Source: Oscillospiraceae bacterium | GTDB taxonomy: Bacteria > Bacillota > Clostridia > Oscillospirales > QAMX01 | Reading direction: 5' to 3' | Assembly (NCBI GenBank): GCA_015067705.1 | Contig: SVLW01000010.1 | Coordinates: forward strand, 2,434 to 66,433 | Length of the DNA: 64,000 bases | Part shown: positions 40,063 to 51,106 of the stretch, piece after piece | How the letters are laid out: the number at the start of each line of letters is the position of its first letter | Numbering within the stretch: position 1 is the first letter of the stretch | The notes under the pieces: model-generated | The model's input: only the letters and a program-made list of their open reading frames with translations | Told to the model about the DNA's origin: nothing | Database searches by the model: none | Made by a program: the position numbers and the translations under genes

Positions 40063-41896
40063 GGCAGAATCCTCCTTCCATGAGGCAGGCTGCGCCGCAG
40101 GCGTTGCAGCCGCCGCTGCGGCAGTCCGGCGTGGCGATCTCTTCCTTCGCAAGACGGGCCTCCCGCTCCATATATTCCCGGCTGACGCCGTGGAAGATAT
40201 GATCCCAGGGCAGCACTGCGGAGAACTCCGGAGCGCGCTGGGCGTAATATTCCCGGGTGAGGCCGCAATCGAGGAATGCCTGATCCCAGCCCTCGCGGTT
40301 TAAGTACTCGTCCCAGCTGTCGAACTTACAGCCGTGTTTCCATGCGGCATAGACCACGTCGCAGAGTCTGCGGTCGCCCCGGGCAAGGGCGGCCTCCAAA
40401 ATGCTGGTGTAGGAATCATGCCAGGAGAAGTCCACGTTTTTGATCTTCATGATGCTCTTGAGATATTCCTGCTTCCGGGCGATTTCCTCGGCGCTGTCCA
40501 TGGCCTCCCACTGGAAGGGGGAACAGGGCTTCGGCACAAAGACGGCCACAGACGTGGACACGCGCACCGGGCGCTTTTTATTGGTGGAATGCTTCCGCCA
40601 GAGATCCACCACGGTGCGGGAAATGCGGGCTATGCCGTCCAGATCCTCGTCGGTCTCCGTAGGCAGACCCATCATGAAGTAGAGCTTTACGGAATTCCAG
40701 CCGTGCTCAAAGGCAATGCGGCAGGCGTTATAGATATCTTCCTCGCGGATATTTTTATTGATGACGTTGCGGAGGCGCTGGGTGCCGGCCTCCGGCGCAA
40801 AGGTCAGGCCGGTGCGGCGCATTTTTTCAAGCTGCTGTACCAGTTCTTCGTTGAAGGCGTCGGCGCGCTGGGAGGGCAGGGCCACGTCCACATGGCGGGC
40901 ACTGCAATAGGGCTCCAGAAGCTTCAAAAGCTCATCAAGGCCGCGATAGTCCGTGGTGGACAGACTGGTGAGAGAGATCTCCTCATAGCCCGTCATCTCC
41001 ACCAGTGCCTTGGCCTGGCGGAAGAGGGTCTCCGGGGATTTCTCCCGGATGGGGCGATAGGCATGTCCCGCCTGGCAGAAGCGGCAGCCGCGCATACAGC
41101 CGCGCATAACCTCCAGCATCACGCGGTCATGCACCACCTGGGTGGAGGGCACCACGATGCTGTCCGGGAAATACATGTTGTCGAGATCCAGCACCACCCG
41201 CTTTTCCACGGTGGCGGGGATGCCGTCCTCCACGGTGAGGCCGGAGAAGTCCCCGTTTTCGTCATACTGGGGCGTATAGAAGGTCGGGACGTAGACGCCG
41301 CGGATCTCTTTTGCGGCCTTCCGCAGGAAGGCGTCCTTGCTCCAGCCCTGTGCCTTGGCCTCCCGATAAAGGGCCAGGAACTCCACGGACACTTCCTCGC
41401 CGTCGCCCAGGAGGAACACATCCACGAAATCGGCCAGAGGCTCCGGATTGGCGGCGCAGCAGCCGCCGGCGATAACGAGGTTTTTGAGCTCCTTTCGGTC
41501 GCGGGCGTAAACCGGCACGCCGGAGAGATCCAGCATATTGAGCAGGTTCGTATAGCTCAGTTCATAGGAGAGGGAGAAGGCGATCACGTCAAACTCCTTG
41601 ACCGGGTCTCCGGACTCCAGGGCGTACAGCGGGATCTTCCGGTCGCGCAGCTCCGCCTCCATATCCGGCCAGGGTGCGAAGCAGCGCTCGCACCAGACAT
41701 AGTCCAGGGTGTTATATACTCCATAGAGGATCTTCATGCCGAGATTCGACATGCCGATCTCATAAACGTCCGGGAAGCAGAATGCCGCCCGCACTTCGAT
41801 CCGGCTCAGATCCTTTTTGATCTGTCCGTATTCGCCGCCGACATAGCGCGCGGGCTTTTGCACCCTTTGCAGGGCGGTTTCCAGATCTTTGCGCAT
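40055..41896 (-). CDS. B12-binding-domain radical SAM protein (TIGR03960 type)
   Basis: 'KPARYVGGEYG' N-terminus and radical SAM cluster 'RGCMRGCRFCQAG'. A strong SD GGAGG precedes the ATG at 41896. Confidence 0.85.
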   Translation of the reverse strand: MRKDLETALQRVQKPARYVGGEYGQIKKDLSRIEVRAAFCFPDVYEIGMSNLGMKILYGVYNTLDYVWCERCFAPWPDMEAELRDRKIPLYALESGDPVKEFDVIAFSLSYELSYTNLLNMLDLSGVPVYARDRKELKNLVIAGGCCAANPEPLADFVDVFLLGDGEEVSVEFLALYREAKAQGWSKDAFLRKAAKEIRGVYVPTFYTPQYDENGDFSGLTVEDGIPATVEKRVVLDLDNMYFPDSIVVPSTQVVHDRVMLEVMRGCMRGCRFCQAGHAYRPIREKSPETLFRQAKALVEMTGYEEISLTSLSTTDYRGLDELLKLLEPYCSARHVDVALPSQRADAFNEELVQQLEKMRRTGLTFAPEAGTQRLRNVINKNIREEDIYNACRIAFEHGWNSVKLYFMMGLPTETDEDLDGIARISRTVVDLWRKHSTNKKRPVRVSTSVAVFVPKPCSPFQWEAMDSAEEIARKQEYLKSIMKIKNVDFSWHDSYTSILEAALARGDRRLCDVVYAAWKHGCKFDSWDEYLNREGWDQAFLDCGLTREYYAQRAPEFSAVLPWDHIFHGVSREYMEREARLAKEEIATPDCRSGGCNACGAACLMEGGFCHV

Positions 41897-42461
41897 AGGT
41901 ACCTCCGAATATCAGGCCACATATGGCCAGTATACTGATATTATACCGCGTTTTCAGGAGAATGTACACCCCGAAAACGAGAAGTCCTCCGCCCACCGCC
42001 AGAGAAATCCGCCGGGCGGTCTCCCGGGCGCGCTCCTCCGGCAGGCGGCAGGACAAAAGCGCCAGCATCACCTGTCCCCCGTCCAGCGGCAGCGCCGGCA
42101 GCAGATGAAAGAGCCCCATCAGGAGATTCACCCCCGCGGCCAAATGAAACGCCGCCGTGTGAGCAGTGGATTCCGCGCCGAGGGAGAGGAGGAGCGCCCC
42201 TGTCAGATTGGCCGCGGCGCCGCCGGCGGCAATGAGGGCGTCATGAGTGTAGGGCAAAAGCCCGTCAAAGCGCATGAGGAAACCAAAACCGCACCACTCC
42301 ACCCGCCGCAGTCTGGCCCCGTAGAGGCGCATCAGCAGAAGATGCCCCAGCTCGTGGAGCATCGACGCGGCCAGCACATAGGGGAACACCCCGCCCGTGT
42401 CCAAAAGATACGCCGCCGCCCAGAAAAGCAGTGTGCCCAGCCCGCAAAAAAGCTTTGCCAT
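41760..42461 (-). CDS. Site-2 protease (peptidase M50) family membrane protein
   Basis: 'HELGH' zinc motif in a TM helix and a second motif 'LPALPLDGG'. The C-terminal about 45 codons overlap the radical SAM gene. Confidence 0.7.
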   Translation of the reverse strand: MAKLFCGLGTLLFWAAAYLLDTGGVFPYVLAASMLHELGHLLLMRLYGARLRRVEWCGFGFLMRFDGLLPYTHDALIAAGGAAANLTGALLLSLGAESTAHTAAFHLAAGVNLLMGLFHLLPALPLDGGQVMLALLSCRLPEERARETARRISLAVGGGLLVFGVYILLKTRYNISILAICGLIFGGTYAQRSGNRPAKGAKARALCRRRIRTDQKGSEPDRSAGGILLPGRL

Positions 42462-42565
42462 CCCCGTTTCCCCCTTGTCGGTTGCAAGTGATTTCCCGCT
42501 GTGGTATCATGAGAGCAGAATTTCGGATGTATGGACAGACGCCGCGTCTGTCCCGGGAGGACGAT

Positions 42566-43927
42566 ATGACGATACCCACAGACTATGCAGAAGATATGCA
42601 GGCGCTCCTTGGCGCAGACTATCCCGCCTTTGCCGAAGCGCTCTTAACCCAGCCGCCCCTCCGGGGTCTGCGGGTGAACACCCGCAAGTTGTCGGCGGAG
42701 GCATTTGCGGCGGTCTCGCCCTGGCCGCTCTCCCCCTCCGCCCTCTGCCGGGATGCCTTCATCGCCGACACGGAGGATCGGGTGGGCCTCCACCCCTATC
42801 ACCACGCGGGACTCTTTTATATGCAGGAGCCCTCGGCCTCGGCGGTGATCGAGGCACTGGATCCCCAGCCGGGATGGACGGTATTGGATCTCTGTGCCGC
42901 CCCCGGCGGCAAGAGCACCCATCTGGCGGCCAGACTGGGGGACGAGGGCATTCTGGTCTCCAACGAATGCGTGGCCTCCCGGGTGAAGCCCCTCTGCTCC
43001 AATCTGGAGCGCATCGGCGCGAAGAACGCGGTCATCACCTCCGCCATGCCGGATCAACTGGCGGATGCATGGGGTGCCTGCTTTGACGCGGTGGTGGTGG
43101 ATGCGCCCTGCTCCGGCGAGGGCATGTTCCGCCGGGACGAAGTGGCCGTCCGGGAATGGAGCCGGGAGCACGTCCTGGGCTGCGCGGAGCGCCAGCTTCT
43201 GATCCTGGAGGATGCGGCCCGCATGGTGGCGGGCGGCGGCATCCTGCTCTATTCCACCTGTACCATGAATATCCATGAAAACGAGGAGGTCCTGGATCGC
43301 TTCCTCTCCGCCCACCCGGAGTTTACGATGGAGCCCATCACTGCGGTATCCCTGCCCCGGGCATTTTCCACGGAGATCGGCCTGCGGGAGGAGATCGCGC
43401 TGGCCGGGCGGCTCATGCCCCATGTGATCCCCGGGGAGGGACATTTCATCGCCCGTCTGCGGAAATCCGGGGACGAACGGGAGGCACTCCCCTTCTCCAT
43501 GGGCAAAGCGCCGGGAAAGGCCGAGCAGAAGATTTTGCAGGATTTTATAGAGGAAACTTTCACATCCATCCTTTGGACGGAGCCCACGCTCCGGGGCGAC
43601 GCCGTGTGGCTCTCCCCCGGGGATCTGCCCTATGCGGTGCGCAGCGGCGTGTGCCTGGGGCATTTCGTGCGGGGCCGGTTCGAACCGGATCACAGCCTTT
43701 TTTTGGCAGAAAATGCCGATTTTTTCCAGAGAACGGTGATTTTATCCCCGGACGATCCCCGCATGGCGGCCTATCTCCGGGGCGAGCAGATCAGCGCGGA
43801 CTGCGGCAAGGGCTGGTGCGCGGTATGCGTGGAGGCCGGAGGGCAGGCATATCCCTTAGGCATGGGAAAAGCGTCAAACGGAGCCGTGAAGAACCATTAT
43901 CCCAAGGGTTTGCGGAATTTTAAGTGA
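42566..43927 (+). CDS. rsmF: RsmB/RsmF-type RNA cytosine-C5 methyltransferase (NOL1/NOP2/Sun family)
   Basis: SAM motif 'VLDLCAAPGGKST', catalytic 'DAPCSGEGM' and 'YSTCT'. The start was set at the ATG at 42566, which has SD GGAGG. Confidence 0.82.
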   Translation: MTIPTDYAEDMQALLGADYPAFAEALLTQPPLRGLRVNTRKLSAEAFAAVSPWPLSPSALCRDAFIADTEDRVGLHPYHHAGLFYMQEPSASAVIEALDPQPGWTVLDLCAAPGGKSTHLAARLGDEGILVSNECVASRVKPLCSNLERIGAKNAVITSAMPDQLADAWGACFDAVVVDAPCSGEGMFRRDEVAVREWSREHVLGCAERQLLILEDAARMVAGGGILLYSTCTMNIHENEEVLDRFLSAHPEFTMEPITAVSLPRAFSTEIGLREEIALAGRLMPHVIPGEGHFIARLRKSGDEREALPFSMGKAPGKAEQKILQDFIEETFTSILWTEPTLRGDAVWLSPGDLPYAVRSGVCLGHFVRGRFEPDHSLFLAENADFFQRTVILSPDDPRMAAYLRGEQISADCGKGWCAVCVEAGGQAYPLGMGKASNGAVKNHYPKGLRNFK

Positions 43928-44190
43928 AAACGGGAATCATTCGGGAAAATTTCCATTCTTTTTCCGTTTTGCGCGGGAAGTCTTCTGTAATCTTGCATAA
44001 TCTATTGAATTTTCTTGCAGAATATGGTATGATAGACTTGCAAGGAATCGAACAGAAAGGTGACAGCACAGCATTGGGTCGCAGGGAAGGAGGCGGTGGG
44101 CATGGCTGGTGCTGAACGGGCGGCAGTTGCCCCGACTGCGGCCGGGCGGTGCGTATGGATGCCGCCGAATCCAAGAAATAAAGGAGTGAA

Positions 44191-44724
44191 GTGTCTATGC
44201 CGGAATTGGAGCCGTATCTGAATTATTTATCGATCTTTGAGGGAGTCCCCTTTATCGCGTACCTTCTCTTTGGCCTGGGCGTGATGCTCTTGATGATTGA
44301 GATGAGCATTCCCGGCTTTGGCGTGGCGGGCGTGGGATCCATGATCTCGTTCTCCGCGTCCGTGATCCTGGCGGCAGATACTCTGGTGGAGGGATTGATC
44401 TTCACGGGCATCATTTTGGCGGTGTCCGCGGTGATCGTGGTCACGTTCCTGGTGCTTCTATCGAGGGGCGTGTTCAAGTCCGGACTGATCCTCCATGCCA
44501 GCACCTCGAAAGAGGCGGGCTATACCAGCACGGCGGAGGATTTCTCTCATCTGCTGCACGCAGAGGGCAGCGCGGAAACCACCCTGCGTCCCGCAGGGCG
44601 GGCACTTATCAAGGGACGCACCTATGACGTGGTCACCGACGGGAACTTCATCCCCGCGGGCGAGGCCATTCGGGTGCAGGAAGTGGTCGGCAGCCGCATC
44701 GTGGTCACGGCCGACCGTACATAA
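44191..44724 (+). CDS. nfeD: NfeD family membrane protein
   Basis: N-terminal TM bundle and a C-terminal OB-fold-like 'GRALIKGRTYDVVTDG.FI..G..I.V.EV.G..I.V'. It lies upstream of floA. Confidence 0.8.
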   Translation: MSMPELEPYLNYLSIFEGVPFIAYLLFGLGVMLLMIEMSIPGFGVAGVGSMISFSASVILAADTLVEGLIFTGIILAVSAVIVVTFLVLLSRGVFKSGLILHASTSKEAGYTSTAEDFSHLLHAEGSAETTLRPAGRALIKGRTYDVVTDGNFIPAGEAIRVQEVVGSRIVVTADRT

Positions 44725-44740
44725 ATAACAGGAGGAACTT

Positions 44741-45709
44741 ATGGATAACGTCATTTTATTCGGTATTGTCACGGTAGTCGTCGTATTACTGCTTGCGATG
44801 TTTTTCTCTCTGGTGCCGGTGGCGCTGTGGATCAGTGCGCTGGCCGCCAATGTGCGGGTCAGCATCATTACGCTGATCGGTATGCGTCTGCGCCGGGTCA
44901 TCCCCGCCATGATCGTGAACCCCTTAATCAAGGCCACCAAGGCCGGTATTGATCTGCCCATCAATAAGTTAGAGGCCCATTATCTGGCCGGCGGTAACGT
45001 GGACCGCGTGGTAAATGCCCTGATCGCCGCCCAGCGCGCCGATATCCCGCTGGAGTTCGAGCGGGCTGCCGCCATTGATCTGGCGGGCCGCGACGTGCTG
45101 GAGGCCGTGCAGATGAGCGTCAATCCCAAGGTCATCGAAACCCCCGTCATTGCCGCCGTCGCCAAGGACGGCATCGAAGTGAAGGCCAAGGCCAAGGTCA
45201 CCGTCCGTGCCAACATCGACCGTCTGGTGGGCGGCGCCGGTGAGCCCACGGTCATCGCCCGAGTCGGCGAAGGCATCGTCACCACCATTGGCTCCTCCTC
45301 TTCCCACAAGGAAGTGCTGGAGAATCCGGACAGCATCTCCCAGACCGTTCTCTCCAAAGGTCTTGAATCCGGTACCGCATTTGAAATTCTCTCCATCGAT
45401 ATTGCCGACGTGGATGTAGGCCGCAACATCGGCGCCCAGCTGCAGACCGATCAGGCCGAGGCCGACAAGCGCATCGCCCAGGCAAAGGCCGAGGAGCGCC
45501 GCGCCATGGCCGTGGCCCGGGAACAGGAAATGATCGCCGCTGTGCAGGAAATGCGCGCCAAAGTGGTGGAGGCAGAGAGCGAAGTGCCCAAGGCCATGGC
45601 CGCCGCACTGCGGGACGGCAAGATGGGCGTGATGGATTACTACAACATGAGAAACGTCATCGCGGACACCGAGATGCGCAACTCCATCGCCGCCCAGCCC
45701 ACGGAATAA
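44741..45709 (+). CDS. floA: Flotillin-like protein FloA (UPF0365/SPFH)
   Basis: Strong match to the YqfA-type pattern: 'VP.ALWISA.AA.V.V....L.GMRLRRV', '[18 protein letters not shown]'. Confidence 0.9.
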
Positions 45710-45751
45710 GCGCCGGACACCCGTCCGGCATGACAGGAGGTGTATGAACCC

Positions 45752-46099
45752 ATGCCGGTACCGAATATAGAAGAATTTGCCCGACAGATGCAGGGGATCA
45801 CACTGGTGACCACCCACAACCAGCAGCGGGCCAACCGGATGGCAAAACCGACCTCTGAGAAGGCGGATGCGCCGCTGTTTCAAAATCTCCAGGTAGAGGG
45901 GCAGTCCATTGAGGCGCCGCCGCCGGAGATCGTGGCAGAGAAAGAACCTGCAGAACCGGCGGAAGTCCCGGCTTTACCGGACGCGCAGCCGGAGCCGCCT
46001 GCGGCGCCGCGGGTTATGCGGCGGTTCTCCGCGAAAGAACTCCGCCGCGCCGTGATCTTATCTGAGATCATCGGCCCGCCGAAGAGCAGAAGACGATAG
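45752..46099 (+). CDS. Small hypothetical protein, paralog 1 of the floA-linked family (Pro/Glu-rich middle, basic tail)
   Basis: It shares the N-terminal motif F..Q.QGI.LV..HNQQ.ANR with the next two ORFs. SD AGGAGG lies upstream. A GTG at 45740 is an alternative start. Confidence 0.6.
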   Translation: MPVPNIEEFARQMQGITLVTTHNQQRANRMAKPTSEKADAPLFQNLQVEGQSIEAPPPEIVAEKEPAEPAEVPALPDAQPEPPAAPRVMRRFSAKELRRAVILSEIIGPPKSRRR

Positions 46100-46139
46100 C
46101 GCAGCACAGGATCGTCATTGGAAAGAAGGAGGTGGCATA

Positions 46140-46349
46140 ATGGTTAATCTGGAACAGTTGAATCGGAATTATGAAGGACTGACCATGGTGGCGGTTCATC
46201 GTCAGCAGGAAGCCAACCGCCTGGGGCATGGACGGTCGAACGAGAGTAAGATCATCGAGCGCGAGGCCCGCCGCCGTGCACGGCAGTATGAGATCGCCGA
46301 GATCGGCCTCGCCGCCTATTGGAAAAAGCGCCTGGGGCGCAAGAGCTGA
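46140..46349 (+). CDS. Small basic hypothetical protein, paralog 2
   Basis: SD AAGGAGGTGG. The N-terminal motif is EGLTMVAVHRQQEANRL. The last 45 aa are identical to paralog 3. Confidence 0.65.
   Translation: MVNLEQLNRNYEGLTMVAVHRQQEANRLGHGRSNESKIIEREARRRARQYEIAEIGLAAYWKKRLGRKS
46212..46349 (+). repeat. 138-nt direct repeat, copy A (3' part of paralog 2)
   Basis: It differs from copy B at 4 nt (gga/ggt, cgt/aga, gca/gcg), all synonymous. Confidence 0.9.
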
Positions 46350-46386
46350 AAAACGCAAAGAACTCCATAAATAAGGAGGTGGCAGT

Positions 46387-46605
46387 ATGCCGGGTGGAAT
46401 TCCTTTTGATGACATTGCCAGACAGGCAGAGGGCATTCAGATGGTCTCTGCACACAACCAGCAGCAGGCCAACCGCCTGGGGCATGGTCGGTCGAACGAG
46501 AGTAAGATCATCGAGCGCGAGGCCCGCCGCAGAGCGCGGCAGTATGAGATCGCCGAGATCGGCCTCGCCGCCTATTGGAAAAAGCGCCTGGGGCGCAAGA
46601 GCTGA
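46387..46605 (+). CDS. Small basic hypothetical protein, paralog 3
   Basis: SD AAGGAGGTGG. The N-terminal motif is EGIQMVSAHNQQQANRL. The C-terminus is identical to paralog 2. Confidence 0.65.
   Translation: MPGGIPFDDIARQAEGIQMVSAHNQQQANRLGHGRSNESKIIEREARRRARQYEIAEIGLAAYWKKRLGRKS
46468..46605 (+). repeat. 138-nt direct repeat, copy B (3' part of paralog 3)
   Basis: See copy A. Confidence 0.9.
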
Positions 46606-46678
46606 CATCCAGACAAAACAGATCCCCCGCGGCACCGGGAAACCGGCGCCGCGGAGGATTTTCTATGCGTCGGGCAGA

Positions 46679-46710
46679 GAAAGCCCCGGAGAAAATTCTC
46701 CGGGGCTTTC
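46679..46710. terminator. Bidirectional terminator between the small-protein cluster and SBP1
   Basis: Stem GAAAGCCCCGGAGAA/TTCTCCGGGGCTTTC between convergent genes. Confidence 0.7.
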
Positions 46711-46759
46711 TGCCTATCAGAATGGACGGACAGGATCAAACCGTACGCAATTTCTTAAT

Positions 46760-48616
46760 TTAGTCCATCAGCGGAGCAGCCTCGCGGCCCATGGCAACCA
46801 AGTAACGGTTCAGGCGGGTCTGCATCACGTTATAGTATTCCTTGAGGCCCAGGTTATCCTTCATGTACTGCACCATGCCGTCGATCTCGTCCACAGTGTT
46901 GGTACCAACGATCAGATTGGTGGTCATCTCCAGGATATAGGTGGTCAGGTCAGCCTTGTACTGTGCCTGGATAGCGGCCTCTTCATCGGTGGAGAGGGTA
47001 CGATAGGAGTAATATGCGGCGGGGTGGTAATTCTCCTGGCCGAAGACCAGCAGATTCTCGAGAACCGTCTGAGTCGGGAGCTGGACATCCGGGCCGACGC
47101 CGAAGGCATCCTGCCATCCTTCTCTGGTGGTGAAGATCTCATAGTAGGGTTCGCCTGCTGCGAGGGCTTCTTCCACGTTGGCGTAGGTGACAACACGGAC
47201 GTCATGCACGTTGCCGTTTGCCGGGTTCGGCATGCCGTTGCCGTTTAAGAACATGGTACGCGGGGAAGCGTAGCCAACCTTGTCATCGCCCAGCGGATAA
47301 ACCGTCAGAGAGACACCGTCATCGTTCCAGTCATAGGCAACACCCTCGATACCGTACTCATACAGCATGAAGAATTCCTTGCTGTTGACGTAGTCCAGGA
47401 AGGATGCCGCGGCCTGGTAGTCACAGGCGGAGGAGAAGGAGAAGCCGTTATTGGCAGCCACAGACTCCTGCACCAGGAGACGGGGCTCTACGCCGTCCAC
47501 TGCCTGAATGATGGGCATGGGCTGGTAGAGAGAATCCGGATCGCCGGTGGGGGCATTCCAGATATAGTCCGGCATCATGTGGATGGCGGAGACATAGTCA
47601 CCGCCGACCAGCGGTGCGTAAGTGGCCCAGGGATGGCCACCCTCGATGGCAACCAACTGGTTGGAATAGACCTTGTTCATGAAGGTGACGAAGTCGTCAT
47701 AGCCCTCCGTCAGGAAGGAAAGCTCTACCTGACCGGTGGCGGGATCTTCCATGAATTCCTCCCACGGCAGACCGAACCACTGGCCGACGCCCTGGAGCTG
47801 CCAGGTGTTGCCGAGGCCGGTAACGATGCGCTCATCCGCGGCGCCGTTGCCGTTCACGTCCTCTGCCTGGAACTTTTCAATGGCCTGATAGAACTCATCC
47901 AGCGTGCCGGGCATGGAAAGACCCAGATCATCCAGCCAGTCCTGGCGGATGTTCATGGCGTAGGCACCATGCACCTGACCAGGTGCGCGCATATCATACT
48001 TGGAGTTGGAGAAGTCGATGGCCATACCAACGGAGTTGGCGCTGCGGACATGATACCAGTTGCCGTCAGCGGTCATGGCCCAAGACTTTAAGTACAGCAT
48101 GGCGTCCTCGTCGTTATAATATGCCTTGGAGGAGCCGTCGGAATACTCCAGCACGTCATCAAGAGGTGCCAGCATGCCGTTTGCGATCATCTGGTTAAAG
48201 GTGGTGTCATCCACAACGCCCTGTGCATTGAATGCATCCGGCAGGGAGTTGGAGGCGATGAGACCATTCAGCGTGGTAGCATATGCATCGCTGTAGACCG
48301 TCTCATACTGCCAGTCAACGCCATAGCTGTCGCGGAGCGTTGCCATCATCTGTTTCCAGGTTTCAAAATCCTTGGCCTCTTCCATGGGATGGGGCCACTG
48401 GGCGTTTTCGCTGCCCAGCCAGTGAATGGTGCGGAGCTCCTGCTCCTCCGGCTGATCAGCGACGTCCTCGTCCTTGGCGGAATCCGTGTCTTTCTTGTCT
48501 CCCACCTCAGTCTTGTCAGAAACATCGTCCTTTGCATCGTCCTTTGCACAGGCGCTGAAGATGGTCAGCAGCATCAAAAGTGCAAGAAGCAGGGCCAGAA
48601 ATTTCTTTGCGTTCAT
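46760..48616 (-). CDS. Large extracellular solute-binding lipoprotein (ABC family-1 SBP), paralog 1
   Basis: Lipobox 'IFSAC', D/K/E-rich linker and an SBP-like body. The C-terminal 'YYNVMQTRLNRYLVAMGREAAPLMD' is shared with paralogs 2-4. The ATG at 48616 has SD GAGGAGG. Confidence 0.82.
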   Translation of the reverse strand: MNAKKFLALLLALLMLLTIFSACAKDDAKDDVSDKTEVGDKKDTDSAKDEDVADQPEEQELRTIHWLGSENAQWPHPMEEAKDFETWKQMMATLRDSYGVDWQYETVYSDAYATTLNGLIASNSLPDAFNAQGVVDDTTFNQMIANGMLAPLDDVLEYSDGSSKAYYNDEDAMLYLKSWAMTADGNWYHVRSANSVGMAIDFSNSKYDMRAPGQVHGAYAMNIRQDWLDDLGLSMPGTLDEFYQAIEKFQAEDVNGNGAADERIVTGLGNTWQLQGVGQWFGLPWEEFMEDPATGQVELSFLTEGYDDFVTFMNKVYSNQLVAIEGGHPWATYAPLVGGDYVSAIHMMPDYIWNAPTGDPDSLYQPMPIIQAVDGVEPRLLVQESVAANNGFSFSSACDYQAAASFLDYVNSKEFFMLYEYGIEGVAYDWNDDGVSLTVYPLGDDKVGYASPRTMFLNGNGMPNPANGNVHDVRVVTYANVEEALAAGEPYYEIFTTREGWQDAFGVGPDVQLPTQTVLENLLVFGQENYHPAAYYSYRTLSTDEEAAIQAQYKADLTTYILEMTTNLIVGTNTVDEIDGMVQYMKDNLGLKEYYNVMQTRLNRYLVAMGREAAPLMD

Positions 48617-48918
48617 ATGATACCTCCTCTTTTTGTATCCAGTCATCCGATTACAGAATGAACACGTCTCTTCCAATCATTTCGGAACCATGACTGTTTC
48701 TGAGGTAATCATAACAGAAAAACAACACTCTCGTCAATCTTTTTGTTCTATCTGCACAAGAAATGCAGATGGTTTCCAAAACCCGTCATTCCGATAGGAA
48801 AATAATGGAAATTATCGCTGTTCTGTGCATTTGGAAAATTTTGGCAGTTATGTCATAGGATTTATGAAAATTCCCGCAGAATATGATGCAGTTTCACGCT
48901 GCGCGCGGGGGGATGACG

Positions 48919-48994: not shown

Positions 48995-50872
48995 TCAGTC
49001 CATCAGCGGAGCTGCTTCGCGGCCAATGGCCTCGAGGTAGCGGTTGACGCGGGTCTGCATGACGTTGTAGTACTCAACGAGACCCAGGTTGTCCTTAGCG
49101 TGCTGAACCTTCTCGTCCAGGGTATCGGTGGTTTCGGTACCGACGACGATGTTGGTGCACAGCTCGACCAGGTAGGTCTTCAGGTCGGTCTCATACTTGG
49201 CGATGATCTCGGCCTCTTCGTTGGTAGCCATGGTGGTGTAGGAATAGTATGCAGTGGGATGATAGTTGTTCTCAGCCTCTGCAACGTAGATCAGCATCTG
49301 CTCAGCAGCGGAGATCAGATCCTCCGGGAAGCCGAGAGCAGCGCGCTGCTCCTGCCACATCTCGCGGGTCATGTTGTCCTGCTTGTAATAGGCTTCTTCC
49401 TCAACTGCCAGAGCTGCATCATCATAGACGATCTGCGGGACAGCCCACAGGTTGCCGTGGTGGCCGCCGTTGATCGGGAAGCAGTTATTGGAGCACCAGT
49501 AGGTCTGGGCAGCGCCGAAGCGCGGGAGTTCTTCCTCAGTCAGGGTGTAGGTGATCAGACCGGTCTTGTCCTCGTTCCAATCCCATGCAACGCCCTCGAT
49601 ACCATGCTTAAAGACCATGTAAACGTCCTGGTCAACCAGGAAGTCCATCATACGGCCAGCGGCAGCGTAGTCAACGTCAGTGGAGAAGGAGAAGCCGACG
49701 AATGCAGCCTGGGATTCCTGAACCAGCAGACGGCCTTCGATGCCCTCAACAGCGGAAACGATGGGCATGGGCATGTAGTAGCCGAGAGGCTCACCGGTGG
49801 ACCAGAACTGGAGGTTACCGGGCATCATACCCAGAGCAGCGATCTCGTTGGCACCGATCTCGGTGGCGCTGCCCCAAGGATGGTTACCCTCGATATACAC
49901 CATGTTGTTGTCATACAGGGTGTTCATGTATTCGCAGTACTCGGCAAAGCCGTCGGTCAGACAGGAAACTTCGATGACGCCGGTAGCCGGATCTTCAATG
50001 AAGTCGGTGTAGGGCAGGCCGTACCACTGGCCAACGCCGCAGGTCTGGAAGTTATTGCCGATCAGACCCATGTAACGCTCTTCCTTGGCGCCGGAGCCGT
50101 TGACGTCCTCGTTCTGGAAGGTCTCAAGAGCCTGATAGAACTCGTCGGTGTTGGTAGGCATTGCCAGGCCGCACTTATCCAGCCAGTCCTGACGGACGCA
50201 GACAGAGTAAGCGCCGTGGATCTGACCGTTTGCACGGGTCACATACTTATCGGTGGAGAAGTCGAAAGAGGAGCCGGTGGTATTGGGCAGCGGTACGTAG
50301 TACCAGTTGCCGTCCTCAACAGTAGCGAATGCCTTCAAGTAAAGGAGCTTGTCGCCGTCGTTATAGAAGACCTTTGCTGCGTCGGAGTACTCCAGGATCT
50401 CATCAACGGAAGCCAGGCCGCCGTTATTGATCAGCTGGTTCAGGGTGGTGTCGGTCAGCACTTCACGGGTATTGAACATATCCGGGAGCGTATCAGCGGC
50501 GATGAAGCCGTTGAGGGTGGTGAGGTATGCGTCGGAATAGATGATGGTATAGGTATAGTCGAGGTTATATTCCTCGGTGATGATGCGCATGAGCTCCATG
50601 TAGGTCTCATACTCGCCGGTAGCAGCCTCTTCACCGGTGGAGTGAGTGGTTGCGCCCTGAGAACCCATCCATTCGATGGCGAGCTTTTCGCTCTCATCGG
50701 GGATGTCAAGTTCTGCCTCATCGTCCTTCTTGTCTTCTGCCTTGTCGTCGGTCTTGTCGGTAGCGGCGGTGTCGTCCTTCTTGTCATCTTCCTTATCGGA
50801 AGCGCAAGCGGAGAACAGAGTCACCATCATCAAGACGGCCAGCAGCAGAGCCAGCAAACGCTTGAGATTCAT
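48995..50872 (-). CDS. Large solute-binding lipoprotein, paralog 2
   Basis: 'MNLKRLLALLLAVLMMVTLFSAC' lipoprotein signal. It is very similar to paralog 3 along its whole length. The start was set at the ATG at 50872, which has SD AGGAGG. Confidence 0.85.
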   Translation of the reverse strand: MNLKRLLALLLAVLMMVTLFSACASDKEDDKKDDTAATDKTDDKAEDKKDDEAELDIPDESEKLAIEWMGSQGATTHSTGEEAATGEYETYMELMRIITEEYNLDYTYTIIYSDAYLTTLNGFIAADTLPDMFNTREVLTDTTLNQLINNGGLASVDEILEYSDAAKVFYNDGDKLLYLKAFATVEDGNWYYVPLPNTTGSSFDFSTDKYVTRANGQIHGAYSVCVRQDWLDKCGLAMPTNTDEFYQALETFQNEDVNGSGAKEERYMGLIGNNFQTCGVGQWYGLPYTDFIEDPATGVIEVSCLTDGFAEYCEYMNTLYDNNMVYIEGNHPWGSATEIGANEIAALGMMPGNLQFWSTGEPLGYYMPMPIVSAVEGIEGRLLVQESQAAFVGFSFSTDVDYAAAGRMMDFLVDQDVYMVFKHGIEGVAWDWNEDKTGLITYTLTEEELPRFGAAQTYWCSNNCFPINGGHHGNLWAVPQIVYDDAALAVEEEAYYKQDNMTREMWQEQRAALGFPEDLISAAEQMLIYVAEAENNYHPTAYYSYTTMATNEEAEIIAKYETDLKTYLVELCTNIVVGTETTDTLDEKVQHAKDNLGLVEYYNVMQTRVNRYLEAIGREAAPLMD

Positions 50873-50949
50873 ACTGTTTCCTCCTTGTAAGGCATGATGG
50901 GAGAATTCCCATCTGATTTCGGATGCGGCAATACCCGCACCAACAGTAA

Positions 50950-50978
50950 CATAATAACATTTTCTTAACAGAATTGCA
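50950..50978 (-). promoter_or_regulatory. Promoter of SBP2
   Basis: On the minus strand, TTGCAA-17 nt-TATTAT. Confidence 0.45.
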
Positions 50979-51106
50979 ATATTTTGAGAAACAATTCTCC
51001 GGATTCTGCTCTGCATTTCCCAATATCTCCCATTTTTCGCGGATTCATTGACGTTCATTCATATTTAATTCACATTTTAGGAAGCACTTTCCCATGTAAA
51101 ACGCAT

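Follow-up and report, generated by a model that had tools for sequence, protein, structure and literature searches.

What do the small genes that trail a bacterial flotillin operon encode, and do they belong together? The question is raised by a 64,000-nucleotide (nt) stretch of Oscillospiraceae bacterium DNA (GenBank assembly GCA_015067705.1, contig SVLW01000010.1, positions 2,434 to 66,433 of the forward strand; hereafter the window), in which nfeD and the flotillin gene floA are followed by three short open reading frames, ORF1, ORF2, and ORF3. A first-pass annotation, made from the letters alone, had presented the three as equivalent paralogs of one unknown family. Our analysis gives a different answer. 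Judged by its motif and position, ORF1 is the form that the conserved third gene of nfeD-floA operons takes in this lineage, and it has in common with ORF2 and ORF3 only a transplanted N-terminal module. ORF2 and ORF3 represent a previously undescribed and very narrowly distributed small-protein family, and all three ORFs sit at the 3' end of an operon of five genes (nfeD-floA-ORF1-ORF2-ORF3) that ends in a strong hairpin, its likely terminator. We regard this account of the gene anatomy and evolutionary history of the array as highly probable.

The third gene of floA operons and the apparent chimera ORF1

Of 80 floA loci taken from reference genomes, 78 were usable for counting tails, and in 69 of these a tail hidden Markov model (HMM) identified a tail-bearing gene directly 3' of floA on the same strand. 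The product of the gene right after floA in Bacilli and Clostridia ends in ..G-I/V-I/V-x-S/A-E-I/V-L-G-x-P-K/R-A-x-R-R (consensus ..dLvqGIImSEILGkPrAlRR), and the two closest genomes, L010 and L011, have the variant tail ..EILEAPLSVRR. Such a protein usually starts with a membrane helix, continues through a long disordered linker, and finishes with a short helix-GxP-basic motif at its C-terminus; the hydrophobic N-terminal helix is typical rather than obligatory, being present in 58 of the 69 tail proteins and absent from 11, as it is from ORF1. In locus L008 (positions 85-375) a lipoprotein-like signal, MKNKTVKILSLFLALVIVAVCACGC, takes the place of the usual transmembrane helix, and the N-terminus is freely exchanged in the family. 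The floA-downstream Bacilli proteins P0011-P0130 all carry the precomputed Pfam domain PF27722.1. In Bacillus subtilis, yqeZ, floA (yqfA), and yqfB form a single sigma-W operon with a terminator after yqfB, and this operon confers sublancin resistance (PMC3498285, PMC8144471). These operon-level data make up the literature on the family; our literature search turned up neither a study of what B. subtilis yqfB does nor any mention of PF27722. The Escherichia coli protein that goes by the name YqfB is an ASCH amidohydrolase and was set aside as unrelated.

Several comparisons tie ORF1 to this family through its C-terminus. The tail HMM, for which 49 proteins encoded after floA in other genera were used, none of them from the window's clade, matched the ORF1 C-terminus AVILSEIIGPPKSRRR with an E value of 8e-11 (37 bits), and ORF1 was its sole match among the 1167 open reading frames of the window. 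Alignment of the ORF1 group with the Bacilli PF27722 proteins by hhalign gave a probability of 93.7% (E 2e-7) over 26 C-terminal columns. Like the third gene elsewhere, ORF1 lies directly after floA, contains a long, low-complexity, disordered linker, and ends in an amphipathic helix followed by E-I/L-x-G-x-P-K/R-x-R-R. Unlike the 58 members with a hydrophobic N-terminal helix, it has no predicted transmembrane segment (maximum Kyte-Doolittle 19-mer score, 0.35) and begins instead with the helix common to the downstream small genes. The AlphaFold2 model agrees with this layout, showing a helix at residues 6-30, no secondary structure at residues 31-93, and a helix at residues 94-107 with a predicted local distance difference test score (pLDDT) of about 90; within the linker, pLDDT is mostly below 50 over residues 37-73.

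Word-indexed homology searches with ORF1 returned only a handful of relatives, of which P0007 and P0008, the latter encoded directly 3' of floA, resemble ORF1 solely in the last 21 residues (KELRRAVILSEIIGPPKSRRR). The precomputed Pfam column lists no PF27722 for the close relatives P0006-P0008, and the Pfam set that we scanned ourselves was without this family, such that P0012 from L075, which has PF27722 in the precomputed table, also gave no match, a false negative. Because the published gene order is yqeZ (nfeD)-yqfA (floA)-yqfB, ORF1 is the positional equivalent of B. subtilis yqfB, an equivalence of position and not of compared YqfB sequence. ORF1 has a new architecture within a known but uncharacterised family.

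The N-terminal motif that the first-pass annotation had seen in all three ORFs is real. The HMM of the small-protein family described below matched the ORF1 N-terminus at E 1e-11 and, elsewhere in the window, only the small-family proteins themselves. The first 30 residues of ORF1 are near-identical to the N-termini of the small proteins encoded at L105, L008, and L110, and the first 90 nt of ORF1 and of the L105 small gene share 82% identity, which argues that ORF1 in the window/L105 lineage is a chimera in which the 5' end of a small gene replaced the original N-terminus of the tail gene. Both ends of this apparent chimera have been kept: relative to the L105 ortholog (P0006), the first 33 codons of ORF1 differ by 8 synonymous and 0 nonsynonymous changes and the last 28 codons by 10 synonymous and 3 nonsynonymous changes, while the linker has diverged with insertions and deletions.

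A second shared trait, a basic tail at the end of all three proteins, survives only in part. It stands for ORF2 and ORF3, but ORF1 ends in another motif, one that is widely conserved and not homologous to theirs: hhalign detected no signal between the two kinds of C-terminus, the tail HMM matched neither ORF2 nor ORF3, and the C-terminal motif of the third gene was found in neither. Homology of the ORF2/ORF3 C-terminus or of the N-terminal module to the YqfB-type tail was likewise rejected (hhalign probability, 0.1%). The N-terminal module QGITLVTTHNQQRANR (45791-45841) and the tail consensus QGIIMSEILGKPRALRR (46040-46096) show an equal QGI-x9-RAxR spacing, probably by chance, the profile comparison being non-significant.

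ORF2 and ORF3 belong to a rare family encoded by a fourth operon gene

The small 'HNQQxANR' family, as defined here, comprises ORF2, ORF3, P0002-P0004, P0009, and P0010, all of about 70-80 amino acids (aa). Its members follow a pattern of an N-terminal helix (..F/I-x-x-Q-x-x-G-I/V-x-L/M-V/L..A-N-R), then G-x-x-x-N/H, then an arginine-rich helix ending in G-L-x-x-aromatic-L, with invariant columns G16, A28, N29, R30, G32, R44, A46, R49, A50, G59, and L60. The proteins have isoelectric points (pI) of 10.5-11.6 and no hydrophobic segment, and the AlphaFold2 model of ORF3 contains two helices, at residues 7-32 and 34-70 (pLDDT 73).

This family is extremely rare in sequence collections. When 1.84 billion representative proteins were searched exhaustively with an HMMER profile, only four matched: the two window proteins, P0009 (E 1e-4; 81 aa), and P0010 (E 7e-4; 73 aa). 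Pattern scans found no member in 185,579 reference genomes or in the JGI long metagenome contigs, and an HMM search found none in all 80 floA loci. Co-occurrence of ORF2/ORF3 with floA across Clostridia, which the first-pass annotation had proposed as a check, therefore fails. No relatives were present among IMG/VR viral contigs, GenBank phages, or PLSDB plasmids, and origin from a mobile element was rejected on that basis. Scans of ORF1-3, P0004, P0009, and P0010 against the same Pfam set, NCBIfam, PHROG, and PADLOC gave no matches; in a PDB sequence search the small-family profile had a single match, at E 0.97, and ORF1 had none; and a Foldseek comparison of the ORF3 model with the PDB returned 0 matches. 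In the lineages that carry the family, FloA is 90.6-98.7% identical to the window FloA, whereas the best reference-genome FloA proteins are only 84-87% identical (from an uncultured Clostridia bacterium and from Candidatus Merdivicinus, Oscillospiraceae). The small family thus marks an uncultured clade without a representative genome.

The order floA, ORF1 (with the shared N-terminal helix and the tail), ORF2, ORF3 is found in the window, in contigs L001-L007, and in L111/L112. A small gene occupies the fourth position in five further locus variants. L105-L108 have floA, the ORF1 ortholog P0006, and one small gene; L009 has floA, a tail protein with its own amphipathic N-terminus, and an ORF3-like gene; L008 has the tail protein with the lipoprotein-like N-terminus and then the small gene for P0004; L110 has a tail gene and then the small gene for P0003; and L091/L093/L094 have nfeD, floA, a gene for a 140-aa tail protein, and the gene for P0009. 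The linkage to nfeD-floA that was originally noted in the window is kept in these relatives, with floA visible directly upstream of the tail and small genes in three of the five variants (L009, L091/L093, and L105-L108). The small protein is the product of a fourth operon gene, and its position is conserved down to about 33% protein identity (P0009).

Divergence and probable homogenization of ORF2 and ORF3

As the first-pass annotation had reported, ORF2 and ORF3 have the same last 45 residues, and the 138-nt segments that encode them differ at 4 nt in three codons (GGA/GGT, CGT/AGA, and GCA/GCG), all synonymous; a repeat finder delimited the pair as 147 nt at 96% identity. Its description of diverged N-terminal thirds and flanks is also borne out. 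Nucleotide identity between the two genes is 45% before codon 24, where synonymous sites are saturated, and 96% after it, with a synonymous divergence (dS) of 0.13, and there is no similarity past the stop codons.

How could two tandem genes come to be so alike in one part and so different in another? Occasional gene conversion of the 3' tract, combined with purifying selection, is the likely answer from the distribution of individual sites; the first reading of the repeat had named the two as alternatives. A GAG>GAA change is present in both L111/L112 paralogs and in neither window paralog, L111 ORF2 has AGA GCG, as ORF3 does in the window, and the sole difference between L004 and the window, 46232 A>T, turns ORF2 to the ORF3 state. 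The step in identity at codon 24, the within-genome sharing of GAG>GAA, and the ORF3 states in L111 and L004 together favor conversion.

Alternatively, and possible though doubtful in our view, there may be no ongoing conversion: the gene may have duplicated in tandem recently (dS about 0.13), and one copy may then have had its 5' third replaced when it recombined with a divergent allele of a related lineage. Such a history would suit the sharpness of the boundary at codon 24, the ORF1-type N-terminus on the small genes of L105, L008, and L110, and the presence of an ORF3-type N-terminus in the L009 lineage, where the first 47 nt are 96% identical and floA is 87% identical; moreover, the GGA/GGT site that distinguishes the paralogs follows orthology between the window and L111. 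It is at odds with the derived GAG>GAA change in both L111 paralogs and with the paralog-distinguishing sites that are polymorphic toward the state of the other paralog in L004 and in L111 ORF2. Conversion and duplication with replacement are compatible processes. As a separate observation, the match of ORF3 (46387-46433) to L009 (1457-1502), between loci whose floA genes have a dS of 0.54, hints at exchange of small genes between lineages but is too short for significance.

The duplicated genes tufA and tufB are the textbook example of bacterial genes that evolve in concert by gene conversion. ORF2 and ORF3 are like them in being near-identical at synonymous sites over a defined tract and in sharing within-genome derived changes in a diverged strain. 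They are unlike them in that the tract is confined to the 3' two-thirds of a 210-nt gene, and the 5' third is saturated, such that the two products keep different N-terminal helices.

A possible accessory role at the FloA-NfeD scaffold

FloA and NfeD form a physical complex via the NfeD oligonucleotide/oligosaccharide-binding (OB) fold, a system described as two-component and without mention of a third gene (PMC11222466). The locus studied here has the same two core genes in the same order as the FloA-NfeD scaffold of Firmicutes (Staphylococcus aureus and B. subtilis), but it co-encodes up to three extra small proteins, and its NfeD is short, without a protease domain.

In the history set out above, the membrane helix of ORF1 has given way to one of 30 residues that was copied from the start of the small gene next to it, and ORF2 and ORF3 are tandem duplicates of a lineage-restricted fourth gene. 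Their N-terminal helices have diverged, and their 3' two-thirds have probably been kept almost identical by conversion on top of purifying selection. For the mechanism we propose the following model. All three products may be cytoplasmic accessory subunits of the FloA-NfeD scaffold; it is synteny and operon position that suggest such a partnership, as they did to the first-pass annotation, which had spoken of clients or partners of the flotillin microdomain. The shared N-terminal helix could act as a common docking or hetero-oligomerisation module, and the YqfB-type tail of ORF1 could serve NfeD or FloA as a ligand peptide on a tether. In ORF2/ORF3, the aromatic helix rich in Arg and Lys might bind acidic membrane or an acidic FloA coiled coil, and ORF1, lacking an anchor of its own, would be held at the membrane in trans via ORF2/ORF3. 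The operon anatomy and history taken together with an accessory role at FloA-NfeD form the best overall explanation, which we consider somewhat better than even. The accessory mechanism by itself is tentative. Its most specific version, in which the 'HNQQxANR' helix is a portable docking or oligomerisation module for FloA-NfeD that was grafted onto a YqfB-type tether in place of the membrane anchor, with the tether held in trans by ORF2/ORF3, is rather unlikely.

MinD and FtsA are peripheral proteins with C-terminal amphipathic membrane-targeting helices. The ORF2/ORF3 C-terminus, LAAYWKKRLGRKS, is like these in mixing aromatic or aliphatic residues with basic ones at the extreme end of the protein, and the likeness extends to the C-termini of relatives (AYLKKHLSRL, RVFLRRHLL, and RAWLGALFGK).

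Several observations weigh against the proposed model. In L008, L009, and L091 the small gene is found beside tail genes whose products retain N-termini of their own, and providing an anchor in trans is therefore not its general role. The small family matches FloA only at a BLASTP E value of 0.44 (ORF3 N-terminal helix against FloA residues 172-226), and hhalign profile-profile comparison with 86 FloA sequences gave nothing; mimicry of FloA was rejected. Nor does the small family show similarity to the tail family, to Pfam, NCBIfam, PHROG, or PADLOC models, or to any PDB sequence or fold. In a hydrophobic-moment scan the ORF2/ORF3 C-terminus did not stand out as a membrane-targeting helix and was not the top-ranked segment; the likeness to MinD and FtsA is an analogy only. 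The evidence for gene conversion consists of a handful of sites. Lastly, the gene for the distant P0010 (L096, 1272-1493; contig GC content, 65%), the only exception to the conserved gene order, follows an unrelated 412-aa open reading frame, itself without a Pfam match, and not floA, on a contig that is short.

The placement of P0010 outside a floA context would be expected if ORF2 and ORF3 were arginine-rich nucleic-acid-binding proteins (RNA or DNA regulators, or ribosome-associated proteins) that ride at the end of the operon with no physical link to the flotillin. Their very basic character (pI 10.5-11.6), a conserved REARRRARQYE-like arginine-rich helix, and a weak sigma-70-like match just 5' of ORF2 would also fit. 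We nonetheless find this improbable, since in every other lineage the tail gene linked to floA is immediately followed by the small gene, even where protein identity is as low as about 33% (P0009, L091), no nucleic-acid-binding family was matched, and the grafting of the N-terminal helix onto a floA-linked tail protein, with 0 nonsynonymous changes, is hard to explain unless the helix acts within the same assembly.

It is very improbable that ORF1-3 are precursor peptides (bacteriocin-like or other ribosomally synthesized and post-translationally modified peptides) or a toxin-antitoxin set. Tandem small ORFs with one conserved and one variable part would suit precursor peptides, as would the effect of the homologous B. 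subtilis operon on sublancin sensitivity (PMC8144471). However, there are no Cys, Ser or Thr-rich cores, leader-type motifs, or nearby modification or export genes, the order of a variable N-terminal part and a constant C-terminal one reverses the logic of leader and core, and no toxin in PADLOC or Pfam was matched.

The array is real and its genes are coding

A near-identical 138-nt repeat in a metagenome contig is an a priori reason to worry about assembly, and the first-pass annotation had named an assembly duplication as a result that would undo its reading. The exact ORF3 protein is encoded on contigs L001-L007, which come from seven samples (five JGI and two ENA) and carry the same floA-ORF1-ORF2-ORF3 array with 0-1 mismatches relative to the window, and L111/L112, from a diverged strain (ORF1 nucleotide identity, 96%), have an identical gene order. 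An array that recurs in at least seven metagenome assemblies made independently, and again in a diverged strain, is real and not an assembly duplication. Translation and purifying selection, both claimed at the outset, are supported by the ratio of nonsynonymous to synonymous divergence (dN/dS), which is 0.09-0.23 in comparisons of small-gene orthologs between lineages, and by the 8 synonymous and 0 nonsynonymous changes in the N-terminal module of ORF1; ORF2 and its L111 ortholog differ by 6 synonymous and 2 nonsynonymous changes. By these substitution patterns, ORF1-3 are protein-coding, translated genes. That the repeat is an artefact of assembly or that the ORFs are non-coding can be dismissed given the independent assemblies, the dN/dS values, the purely synonymous changes in the conserved module, and an Rfam scan with zero family matches anywhere in the window.

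Operon layout and neighboring genes

The features of the operon are collected in Table 1. The coordinates and sequences of ORF1-3 in the first-pass annotation were exact, and the strong ribosome-binding sites that it ascribed to the three genes were found, with a Shine-Dalgarno sequence, AGGAGG(TG), 5-12 nt before each start. Intergenic gaps from nfeD to ORF3 are 16-42 nt, and ORF1 starts 42 nt past the floA stop; an alternative in-frame GTG is present at 45740, yet homologs begin MPVPN/MPGPN. NfeD matched PF01957 (E 4.4e-11) and PF24961 (E 4.8e-8), with scores of 43.2 and 33.5 bits against cut-offs of 29.1 and 26, and FloA matched PF12127 (E 1e-164; 547 bits against a cut-off of 34) and the NCBIfam FloA equivalog (E 3.3e-168). 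Strong hairpins in the gene array are located exclusively 3' of ORF3, where the fold of 46606-46725, comprising two hairpins, has a free energy of -70 kcal/mol (z -9.2); a terminator consensus scan flagged the stem downstream of ORF3 on the minus strand only.

Table 1. Coordinates of the nfeD-floA operon and its features in the window
Feature	Position	Strand	Description or basis
Candidate operon promoter	44005..44033	+	Sigma-70-like, 5' of nfeD; TTGAAT-17-TATGAT with upstream TG; consensus scan, pattern match only
nfeD, short form	44191..44724	+	Membrane domain and C-terminal OB-fold, without protease domain; Pfam
floA	44741..45709	+	Flotillin-like SPFH protein; Pfam, NCBIfam
ORF1	45752..46099	+	Apparently chimeric protein in the YqfB position, 115 aa; N-terminal shared helix, disordered Pro/Glu-rich linker, conserved C-terminal tail
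ORF1 N-terminal module	45752..45841	+	Residues 1-30, MPVPNIEEFARQMQGITLVTTHNQQRANRM; common to ORF2/ORF3 and the small genes of relatives
ORF1 C-terminal tail motif	46019..46096	+	RRFSAKELRRAVILSEIIGPPKSRRR; signature of the floA-following gene in Bacillota
ORF2	46140..46349	+	Basic helical protein of the rare small family, 69 aa, pI 10.6
Repeat copy 1	46212..46349	+	Last 45 codons and stop of ORF2
ORF3	46387..46605	+	Basic two-helix protein, 72 aa, pI 10.5; tandem duplicate of ORF2
Repeat copy 2	46468..46605	+	Last 45 codons and stop of ORF3
Likely intrinsic terminator of nfeD-floA-ORF1-3	46620..46666	+	GC-rich hairpin (stem 46620-46661), then UUUUCU; RNA fold
Second perfect hairpin, between convergent genes	46672..46715	.	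Probably terminator of the minus-strand gene ending at 46760; inverted repeat, 16/16 complementary; fold

Two further elements were seen between the genes. A small GC hairpin (GCCGGAC-ACCC-GTCCGGC, 45712-45729) lies between the floA stop and the Shine-Dalgarno sequence of ORF1; it is retained in L105 with a 1-nt insertion or deletion in the loop, and its fold is no better than that of shuffled sequences (z -1.0). A sigma-70-like pair, TCGTCA-18-CATAAT (46112-46141), overlies the Shine-Dalgarno sequence and start of ORF2 and is a possible internal promoter for ORF2-ORF3, a weak consensus match only. Directly 5' of the operon, divergent genes encode an M50-family peptidase (41760-42461, minus strand) and an RsmF-type 16S rRNA methyltransferase (42431-43927, plus strand); their 5' ends overlap by ~30 nt, and one of the two starts was probably called too far upstream. 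Convergent to the operon are genes for two paralogous lipoprotein-like proteins of 638 and 687 aa (46760-48676 and 48995-51058, both on the minus strand), both ending ...REAAPLMD and neither matching a Pfam family above threshold. A third copy lies next to them in L001, and the two also flank the P0009 locus in L090, a case of conserved synteny.

Implications for flotillin operons

About 90% of the examined Bacillota loci have a third gene behind floA, one whose product bears a short conserved motif at the C-terminal end of a disordered tether. In at least one lineage, further small proteins have been added and reshuffled around this third gene. The window is a natural domain-swap experiment, in that the ends of ORF1 are strictly constrained and its linker is free, a combination that points to two separable binding motifs. 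The direct importance of ORF2 and ORF3 is limited by their very narrow distribution; their main value lies in giving a handle on what the third operon component binds and in offering a clean, small-scale example of partial gene conversion. If the proposed role of the shared helix is true, flotillin operons would encode modular, exchangeable short-motif adaptors that go beyond the two-component model of FloA and NfeD.

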